DNA of 64,000 nt, taken from NCBI RefSeq assembly GCF_044647545.1, contig NZ_CP172818.1; one strand, 5' to 3'. Of this stretch, positions 255 through 51,985 are shown piece by piece. Under the pieces are notes generated by a model. The model saw nothing but the letters and a program-made list of their open reading frames with translations, was not told the origin of the DNA and ran no database searches. This DNA comes from Escherichia coli (GTDB lineage Bacteria > Pseudomonadota > Gammaproteobacteria > Enterobacterales > Enterobacteriaceae). The position numbers and the translations under genes were made by a program. Numbering within the stretch: position 1 is the first letter of the stretch; each line of letters begins with the position of its first letter.

Positions 255-1016
<762 letters not shown>

Positions 1017-1039
1017 CTATCCACGGGACGATCCCCTGC

Positions 1040-1200
1040 GTGACATTCACATATATGAAAAAATCGTGCCAGTTTTGCAACTCATTGATTTATCGAGATG
1101 CGGTAAAAACGTGATGCACGATTTATAGGGCAATACCCTGAAGATGCACCATTCTGGGGCACCAAACTGGTGCGCTAAAATTGTGCACTCAACACAGTGA
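1040..1200 (-). promoter_or_regulatory. glnH upstream region: sigma54-type promoter (minus-strand TGGCACGattttTTCAT at about 1056-1072) plus NtrC-like TGCACC...GGTGCA half-site repeats at about 1144-1195
   Basis: Motifs read directly from the sequence; glnHPQ is a known NtrC/sigma54-activated operon. Exact site boundaries not verified. Confidence 0.5.
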
Positions 1201-1404
1201 TTATTTAGCGTAAAACCTGATGAAAAAACAATCTTTATGTAACGATTGTGTGATGATGTGGATACAAAAAATTTACTTAATCAGCTGGAGATAGCAGATG
1301 GATGCACTAAATAAGTGCGTTGAGGTGGGCTGCAAAACAAAACGGCCTCCTGTCAGGAAGCCGCTTTTATCGTGTACTAAAGTTCTGCACCATCAGCGAT
1401 GGAT

Positions 1405-2081
<677 letters not shown>

Positions 2082-40383: not shown

Positions 40384-40667
40384 AACTTCCCGACGCAAAG
40401 TGATTAAAAGGGAGCCAATACAGGCAAGTCGTTGAGAATAAAGTGCAGGTTAAACTGGGTAAAGCGGCATCGTCTTATTTCCCTCAAGCGGCCTGTTTAC
40501 GGTGGGTGATTGTAACGGGCATAGGTTAAATAAAACTTAAAGAAAGCGTAGCTATACTCGCAATAATGTAAGAATGTGCTTAACCGTGGTTTCAGCTACA
40601 AAATTTGCTTTCTCGTTAGCTGCGCTTTTATTAAACTTTGCGCGATTATTATTGGCGAAGAAATTGC

Positions 40668-41900
40668 ATGCAAAATAAATTAGCTTCCGGTGCCAGGCTT
40701 GGACGTCAGGCGTTACTTTTCCCTCTCTGTCTGGTGCTTTACGAATTTTCAACCTATATCGGCAACGATATGATTCAACCCGGTATGTTGGCGGTGGTGG
40801 AACAATATCAGGCGGGCATTGATTGGGTTCCTACTTCGATGACCGCGTATCTGGCGGGCGGGATGTTTTTACAATGGCTCCTGGGGCCGCTGTCGGATCG
40901 TATTGGCCGCCGTCCGGTGATGCTGGCGGGAGTGGTGTGGTTTATCGTCACCTGTCTGGCAATATTACTGGCGCAAAACATTGAACAATTCACCCTGTTG
41001 CGCTTCTTGCAGGGCATAAGCCTCTGTTTCATTGGCGCTGTGGGATACGCCGCAATTCAGGAATCCTTCGAAGAGGCGGTTTGTATCAAGATCACCGCGC
41101 TGATGGCGAACGTGGCGCTGATTGCTCCGCTACTTGGTCCGCTGGTGGGCGCGGCGTGGATCCATGTGCTGCCCTGGGAGGGGATGTTTGTCTTGTTTGC
41201 CGCATTGGCAGCGATCTCCTTTTTCGGTCTGCAACGAGCCATGCCTGAAACCGCCACGCGTATAGGCGAGAAACTGTCGCTGAAAGAACTCGGTCGTGAC
41301 TATAAGCTGGTGCTGAAGAACGGTCGCTTTGTGGCGGGGGCGCTGGCGCTGGGATTCGTTAGCCTGCCGTTGTTGGCGTGGATCGCCCAGTCGCCGATTA
41401 TCATTATTACCGGTGAGCAGTTGAGCAGCTATGAATATGGCTTGCTGCAAGTGCCTATTTTTGGGGCGTTAATTGCGGGTAACTTGCTGTTAGCGCGTCT
41501 GACCTCGCGCCGCACCGTACGTTCGCTGATTATTATGGGCGGCTGGCCGATTATGATTGGTCTGTTGGTCGCTGCTGCGGCAACGGTTATCTCATCGCAC
41601 GCGTATTTATGGATGACCGCCGGGTTAAGTATTTATGCTTTCGGTATTGGTCTGGCGAATGCGGGACTGGTGCGATTAACCCTGTTTGCCAGCGATATGA
41701 GTAAAGGTACGGTTTCTGCGGCGATGGGGATGCTGCAAATGCTGATCTTTACCGTCGGTATTGAAATCAGCAAACATGCCTGGCTGAACGGGGGCAACGG
41801 ACTGTTTAATCTCTTCAACCTTGTCAACGGCATTTTGTGGCTGTTGCTGATGGTTATCTTTTTAAAAGATAAACAGATGGGAAATTCGCACGAAGGGTAA
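40668..41900 (+). CDS. mdfA: Multidrug efflux MFS transporter MdfA (Cmr)
   Basis: ORF 40638..41900; the recognised start is [20 protein letters not shown] at 40668 (410 aa); 12-TM MFS protein. Confidence 0.95.
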
Positions 41901-50428: not shown

Positions 50429-50778
50429 TAACTCCTTTCGAGCACGCAGTCACTGCGGCAGCGACTGCGTGCTGCAAAATTATCTGCTGTTTTTAACCTT
50501 TTCTTAAAGATTGTTTCACTTCTCTTGTGCCGATTTGGCTTTATCACATAGAGCAAATACGCATAAAAATTTGTTAAATACCGTTTTTTAATCCGAGCTA
50601 TAGTCTCAAACCCTGGCTAAAGTTATTCTTGCGATGCTTTTATATAGCGAGCAGTGCTGGCCGGGAGAGAGTTCTCTTTTCTTACACCGCGCCGATAAAA
50701 AATATGCACGTTTATTGCATATCTTTCAGTGTGACAACTTTTGTTCGTTTGTTAACGAACTTTCAGAAGGAAAGAGAT

Positions 50779-51891: not shown

Positions 51892-51985
51892 TCCGCAGTC
51901 GTAGATGCCGGACGGGCGCACCACACCCGCCGGCAATTCGCACCATTATGGTGCGCTTGCACACATTCAATGCCGGAGAGCAGCC

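Follow-up and report, generated by a model that had tools for sequence, protein, structure and literature searches.

The control region upstream of glnH in the stretch of Escherichia coli DNA analyzed here (64,000 nucleotides, hereafter the window) is almost certainly glnHp2, the sigma-54-dependent, NtrC-activated and IHF-assisted promoter of the glutamine ABC transporter operon glnHPQ. This promoter and its architecture are already known: since 1991 glnHp2 has served as a model for IHF-assisted activation at a distance, and it recurs in genome-wide maps of sigma-54 and NtrC. Its recovery here makes it a useful positive control, in which a real sigma-54 promoter and its enhancer were located from sequence alone to within a few bases. 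Our own results concern the elements, their geometry relative to the published transcription start (+1), the identity of the core motif with a ChIP-seq motif, and conservation; the biochemical steps are those of the literature.

The window begins in a part of the E. coli chromosome that is collinear with that of K-12 (glnP, glnH, dps, rhtA, ompX and opgE, as found in the ORF listing and by megablast), and adding 847,003 to a window position gives the coordinate in NC_000913.3. The K-12 glnHp2 (Claverie-Martin and Magasanik, 1991; ChIP-seq site OS06) is the same locus as the glnHp2 of the window. Between positions 1040 and 1200 the two sequences differ by only four single-base substitutions (at 1084, 1092, 1104 and 1166), none of them at a consensus position; two lie in spacers, 1084 in the N4 of the IHF core and 1166 in the N3 of the promoter-distal NtrC dyad. 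The sigma-54 17-mer, both NtrC dyad half-sites, the IHF core and the distance to glnH are identical. The features of the region are collected in Table 1.

Table 1. Features in and around the glnH control region, in window coordinates, with distances given relative to the glnHp2 start
Feature	Position	Strand	Sequence	Basis or remark
glnH CDS, periplasmic glutamine-binding protein	255..1001	-		ORF listing; E. coli genome annotation
glnH Shine-Dalgarno	1007-1012	-	AAGGAA	
Predicted stem-loop, 5' end of glnHp2 transcript (first 26 nt)	1019..1044	-	GUCACGCAGGGGAUCGUCCCGUGGAU	fold prediction
glnHp2 transcription start, +1	1044	-	G	derived from construct and primers of PMC1865078
glnHp2 sigma-54 core promoter	1056..1072	-	CTGGCACGATTTTTTCA	sequence; PWM; ChIP-seq motif identity; conservation
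IHF core site	1078..1090	-	AATCAATGAGTTG	exact match to WATCAANNNNTTR; centered near -40
Conserved block	1113..1133	-	TTGC-N10-GTGCA	-89 to -71; between NtrC dyads and IHF site
Promoter-proximal NtrC dyad	1145..1161		TGCACCATTCTGGGGCA (written as + strand)	center 1153 = -109; 1 mismatch, best match in window
Promoter-distal NtrC dyad	1158..1174		GGCACCAAACTGGTGCG (written as + strand)	center 1166 = -122; 2 mismatches, joint second-best in window
Third, degenerate dyad	1171..1187		TGCGCTAAAATTGTGCA (written as + strand)	center -135; 3 mismatches
glnHp1	1195..1231	-		start about 1195, placed from CRP site at -61.5
glnHp1 -10 hexamer	1202-1207	-	TAAATA	read from sequence
glnHp1 -35 hexamer	1226-1231	-	TTGTTT	read from sequence
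Degenerate CRP site of glnHp1	1246..1267	-	ttgTATCCacatcaTCACAcaa	sequence quoted in PMC1865078, located in window

Core promoter and transcription start of glnHp2

On the minus (glnH) strand, the sequence TGGCACGATTTTTTCA at 1056-1071, preceded by a C at 1072, forms a sigma-54 core with GG at 1070/1069 and a -12 element, TTTCA at 1060-1056, in which T replaces the consensus G. Read in the GG-N10-GC frame, the site has the GG and carries TC rather than GC as its -12 dinucleotide; -12 elements without GC also occur among validated sigma-54 sites, including those of pspA (TTGTA) and hydN (GTGAA) (PMC4591121). The first-pass annotation, which was made from the sequence, had proposed a TGGCACG-N4-TTTCA element here as the sigma-54 promoter of glnH, and that proposal stands: the 17-mer CTGGCACGATTTTTTCA is identical to the glnH sigma-54 ChIP-seq site OS06 of K-12, which bears a 'C' in the EcoCyc column of the published table (PMC4591121), and the OS06 motif center, 847290, converts exactly to window 1064, the center of 1056-1072.

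We scanned the window with a sigma-54 position weight matrix (PWM) trained on 39 ChIP-validated intergenic sites (PMC4591121), from which the three sites that lie in the window (glnH, potF and rcdA) had been left out. The glnHp2 site scored 16.58 bits (training median, 16.42) and was the top match on either strand of the 64 kb. Taken by itself, however, the core motif is within chance expectation. At no more than one mismatch to the sigma-54 consensus, 2.05 matches are expected per shuffled window and one was found, and a score of 16.58 bits was reached somewhere in 32% of simulated 64-kb sequences. Because these single-motif statistics are not significant, we rely on the joint architecture and on conservation, as described below.

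The published start fits the element closely. A fusion construct spanning '-289 to +63 of glnHp2' was reported together with both of its primers (PMC1865078); these map to window positions 1333 and 982, which delimit a 352-bp fragment, and each end independently places +1 at 1044. A 'distance 44' entry for the site (PMC4591121), as we read that column, fits a start at most 1 nt from 1044. Counted from this +1, the GG occupies -26/-25 and the -12 dinucleotide TC occupies -14/-13, and the start falls 12 nt downstream of the end of the -12 element at 1056. The mapped start is thus consistent with the proposed element.

Many of the sigma-54 sites detected by ChIP have not been shown to be promoters (PMC4591121), and the glnH site might accordingly be imagined as poised or non-productive, or as served by an enhancer-binding protein other than NtrC. 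We give this reading practically no weight. Overexpression of sigma-54 raises glnH, one of only five genes so affected that have an upstream intergenic sigma-54 site (PMC4591121), and the glnHp2 start itself has been detected by primer extension (PMC1865078). With respect to the activator, the dyads fit the NtrC consensus and NtrC binds in vivo and in vitro, as detailed in the next section, and regulation of glnH is attributed to NtrC in the same sigma-54 study (PMC4591121). The site is therefore best read as the productive, NtrC-activated core of glnHp2.

Enhancer dyads, IHF site and their joint occurrence

A search with the 17-bp NtrC consensus TGCACCA-N3-TGGTGCA matched three dyads in a 13-bp register upstream of the core promoter, and a repeat finder gave the same 13-nt register. 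The promoter-proximal and promoter-distal dyads overlap by 4 bp, with their centers 13 bp apart (direct repeat D1, 13-nt spacing). The run of dyads extends from 74 to 116 bp upstream of the -24 element, close to the 80-130 bp or so at which tandem NtrC-like palindromes had been placed when the sequence was first annotated. The third dyad probably does not represent a conserved functional site: in an alignment of 40 upstream regions, conservation of its upstream half did not extend beyond Escherichia. The centers of the other two, which we derived from +1 = 1044 as -109 and -122, agree with the NtrC site positions reportedly given by Claverie-Martin and Magasanik (1991).

Published binding data place NtrC on this region. 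ChIP-seq of nitrogen-starved K-12 cells gave a 74.8-fold NtrC peak at glnHPQ (PMC4066584), and genomic SELEX (gSELEX) with K-12 DNA gave peaks of both RpoN and NtrC between glnH and dps, the latter at 87% (PMC8743547). The NtrC ChIP-seq and gSELEX peaks convert to window positions of about 1035-1136, at a resolution of tens of base pairs; the ChIP-seq interval (1035-1115) is centered nearer to the core promoter than to the dyads, an offset that lies within the resolution of the method. Dyads with one and two mismatches in our scan and published NtrC peaks over the region thus both agree with the original assignment of these repeats to NtrC.

Two features go beyond that annotation, namely an IHF site and the sigma-70 promoter glnHp1 (discussed in the last section). 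The IHF core lies between the NtrC dyads and the promoter, on the promoter strand. Exact matches to the IHF consensus number 7 in the window, compared with 2.9 expected. The literature states that glnHp2 depends on IHF and needs the bend that it introduces (PMC2709558), and the IHF sequence of glnHp2 has been used in a construct, reported with no coordinates for the site (PMC8899819); a further paper, likewise with no site coordinates, cites Claverie-Martin and Magasanik (1991) for glnHp2 (PMC4740811).

Considered together, these elements are far less common than any one of them. NtrC-like dyads with at most two mismatches number 6 in the window when both strands are counted, compared with a mean of 0.65 in simulated windows. 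We defined the joint architecture as a sigma-54 match of at least 12 bits with at least two NtrC-like dyads (at most two mismatches) 60-200 bp upstream of it, and found it once in the real window and in none of 1000 windows simulated from a first-order Markov model. This result bears on the possibility that the motifs are chance resemblances and that the sigma-70 promoter glnHp1 is the sole source of glnHPQ expression. The statistics of the sigma-54 match by itself (2.05 expected, 32% of simulations) are what such a reading would predict, whereas the joint architecture is not, and neither are the published sigma-54 and NtrC occupancy, the start detected by primer extension, or the conservation of motif, spacing and dyads across Enterobacterales against diverging flanks. 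Given the simulation result, the conservation and the occupancy data from the literature, we consider chance resemblance excluded for practical purposes.

As described in the literature, activation of glnHp2 would proceed as follows. RNA polymerase containing sigma-54 would bind at 1056-1072, forming on the -24/-12 element a closed complex that is unable to open by itself. Upon nitrogen limitation, NtrB would phosphorylate NtrC, and dimers of NtrC-P on the overlapping dyads at -109 and -122 (1145-1174) would assemble into the active oligomer. IHF bound at about -40 (1078-1090) would bend the 60-bp spacer, allowing the enhancer-bound ATPase to touch the polymerase and drive formation of the open complex, after which transcription would begin at window position 1044.

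glnHp2 and glnAp2 of E. coli share a tandem arrangement of a p1 promoter (sigma-70, CRP-activated) and a p2 promoter (sigma-54, NtrC-activated), with NtrC sites in the p1 region. The strong NtrC sites of glnAp2 are about 32 bp apart, whereas the glnHp2 dyads overlap at 13 bp. Moreover, glnAp2 has no obvious IHF site and is transcribed well in vitro without IHF, in contrast to the IHF requirement of glnHp2 (PMC2709558), and its -12 sequence is TTCGCT, compared with TTTCA at glnH (PMC4591121), whose core is weak. glnHp2 resembles IHF-dependent sigma-54 promoters such as Klebsiella nifH/nifU, Pseudomonas Pu and E. coli pspA, at each of which the enhancer lies some 100 bp or farther upstream, the loop contains an IHF site, and the bend assists a weak closed complex (PMC2709558). 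The activators there are NifA, XylR or PspF rather than NtrC, and the enhancer sequences differ.

Conservation upstream of glnH in Enterobacterales

Searching with a degenerate pattern taken from glnH coding DNA, we retrieved 120 loci, among which tblastn split orthologues from distant homologues. A sigma-54 motif was present upstream of glnH in 42 of the 44 Enterobacterales loci, in 38 of these at 50-59 nt from the ATG, and at least one NtrC-like dyad centered between -126 and -95 accompanied it in 37 of the 42 (two dyads in 22). Among the 44 loci surveyed, the motif was absent upstream of glnH in Pectobacterium and Brenneria; it was also absent at the glnH homologues of Pseudomonas and of alpha- and beta-proteobacteria. 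Outside the Enterobacterales, Acinetobacter boissieri has a glnH homologue with only 52% identity, and a strong sigma-54 motif (TTGGCATGTGTATTGCA, 18.1 bits) stands 53 nt from its ATG; no NtrC-like dyad was detected upstream of that gene.

A genera-level alignment of 40 upstream regions showed sharp footprints between diverged flanks. At the enhancer, the conserved positions comprise the distal half-site GCACCA (-129 to -124), G.GC.CC in the middle that is common to both dyads, and the proximal half-site GTGCA (-105 to -101). At the core promoter they comprise the blocks TGGCA, GATT and TTTCAT. The IHF site is conserved as AAAACAA..TTG.AAA in Enterobacteriaceae.

The departure from consensus at -12 is itself conserved: 40 of the 42 loci have a non-consensus element (TTTCA, TTCCA or TTTCG), and TTGCA occurs only in two Rahnella loci. 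glnHp2 has been reported to be a weak promoter, and we infer that the conserved T-for-G substitution keeps it weak, hence reliant on its own enhancer and on IHF. Retention of this weakness in so large a share of the loci suggests that it is the product of selection and not an accident.

In the orthologous glnH promoter of Salmonella Typhimurium (STM0830), the sigma-54 site, TGGCATGATTTTTTCATT, differs from that of E. coli by a single base of the -24 element (C to T), a variant also found in several genera. This site is bound in ChIP-chip, and the operon depends on rpoN, with glnHPQ expression 7.1-fold higher in the wild type than in a delta-rpoN strain. Together with the NtrC peak in nitrogen-starved cells and the induction by sigma-54, this dependence supports the view, also voiced when the sequence was first annotated, that expression of glnHPQ is nitrogen-regulated.

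glnHp1, candidate additional sites and other features of the window

glnHp1 is described as a weak sigma-70 promoter ('binds very weakly'), with a CRP site centered at -61.5 (PMC1865078). A scan of 990-1420 returned no strong sigma-70 consensus promoter, which fits a weak glnHp1 and gives it no independent support. The TCACA half of the CRP site is conserved, as are GATTGTTTT and TAAA in the glnHp1 region. Overlapping the -35 hexamer at 1228-1249 is an inverted repeat, ACAATC-N10-GATTGT, whose conservation reaches Serratia, Rahnella and Hafnia and which looks like a candidate binding site for a regulator.

glnHp1 is situated immediately upstream of the enhancer. Relative to its placed start, the NtrC dyads are at about +30 and +43, so that NtrC binding may also hinder transcription from glnHp1; by analogy with glnA, NtrC may dampen this promoter. 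Taken further, the same geometry, which follows from a start at about 1195 as set by the CRP site at -61.5, would make the dyads mainly an operator, with NtrC blocking glnHp1 and activation of glnHp2 secondary, and the glnH promoter architecture does resemble that of glnA, where NtrC sites overlap p1 (PMC3870243). This reading predicts poorly what is observed, and we think it very improbable: glnHPQ is induced, not repressed, both by nitrogen limitation and by overexpression of sigma-54, and the spacing between the dyads and the sigma-54 core is the canonical one for an enhancer. Any repression of glnHp1 would, moreover, add to activation rather than replace it. We thus regard the dyads primarily as the enhancer of glnHp2.

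Two further stretches of the control region resemble NtrC sites. The first is the conserved block at 1113-1133, in which TTGC (1133-1130) and GTGCA (1119-1115) are the conserved parts. Within it, GATGCACGATT at 1113-1123 is a copy, 30 bp away, of the half-site GATGCACCATT of the proximal dyad (1143-1153; direct repeat D2), and the block is possibly a weak NtrC site. The repeat finder also gave inverted repeat I3 here, and 9 nt of the block (1116-1124) are an exact complement of 1061-1069 in the -24 element. The second stretch is a TGCAC-N7-GTGCA palindrome at 1303-1319 (minus strand, CGCACTTATTTAGTGCA), at about -267 and between the dps terminator and glnHp1. Conserved across Enterobacteriaceae, the palindrome recurs at the corresponding alignment position in genera that include Citrobacter, Enterobacter, Kluyvera, Cedecea, Siccibacter, Pluralibacter and Hafnia. 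In these it departs from the NtrC consensus by 2-3 mismatches, compared with 4 in E. coli, and the sequence on either side of it is not conserved.

That the glnH control region holds NtrC-type sites beyond the two classical ones, with candidates at about -267 and about -80, seems to us a rather unlikely but conceivable reading of these resemblances. If both candidates bind NtrC, the region would contain a four-site array, which might aid assembly of the oligomer or govern or repress glnHp1 or glnHp2. No description of additional NtrC sites at glnH was found in the accessible literature, including a search for 'glnHp1'; databases may record them.

The 5' end of the glnHp2 transcript can be folded into a stem-loop (1019-1044), with a minimum free energy of -8.8 kcal/mol that is no better than that of shuffled sequences (z = -0.66). 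At this position CGCAGGGGAT.GCCCCGTGGAT is conserved in Enterobacteriaceae, and more distant genera have hairpin-capable sequences of different composition in the same place. RNAalifold kept only 3 pairs in the stem-loop region, with negligible covariation energy, and an Rfam search of 900-1500 gave only sub-threshold matches, all around the dps terminator and none for the 5'UTR. We put the hairpin forward weakly, as an observation of conserved sequence with a predicted structure.

Next to the glnH region, dps (1405-1907, minus strand) has a 1-nt deletion relative to K-12, with a run of five rather than six Ts at 1823-1827, that shifts the reading frame after codon 26. Of 5,421 complete E. coli genomes, only that of strain CUVET20-PYO4 (dog endometrium, Bangkok) was 100% identical over 401 bases spanning dps and shared the deletion; dps is annotated there as a frameshifted pseudogene. 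The frameshift may reflect a genuine loss of Dps, or else a sequencing error in the homopolymer.

Other sigma-54 and NtrC motifs occur farther along the window. The known sigma-54 site of potF, TATGCACGTTTATTGCA, is at 50703-50719, 61 nt upstream of the potF ATG. In the potF-potG spacer, a near-perfect NtrC-like palindrome with 2 mismatches (CGCACCATTATGGTGCG, 51939-51955) fits the position of a strong NtrC gSELEX peak (95%) listed for that spacer (PMC8743547). The known sigma-54 ChIP site OS07 (TTGGCGAAGAAATTGCA) is found at 40652-40668, about 4 kb beyond its K-12-collinear position, which indicates that the window has about 4 kb of extra DNA relative to K-12 somewhere between the end of the aligned stretch, at about 3.2 kb, and 40.6 kb.
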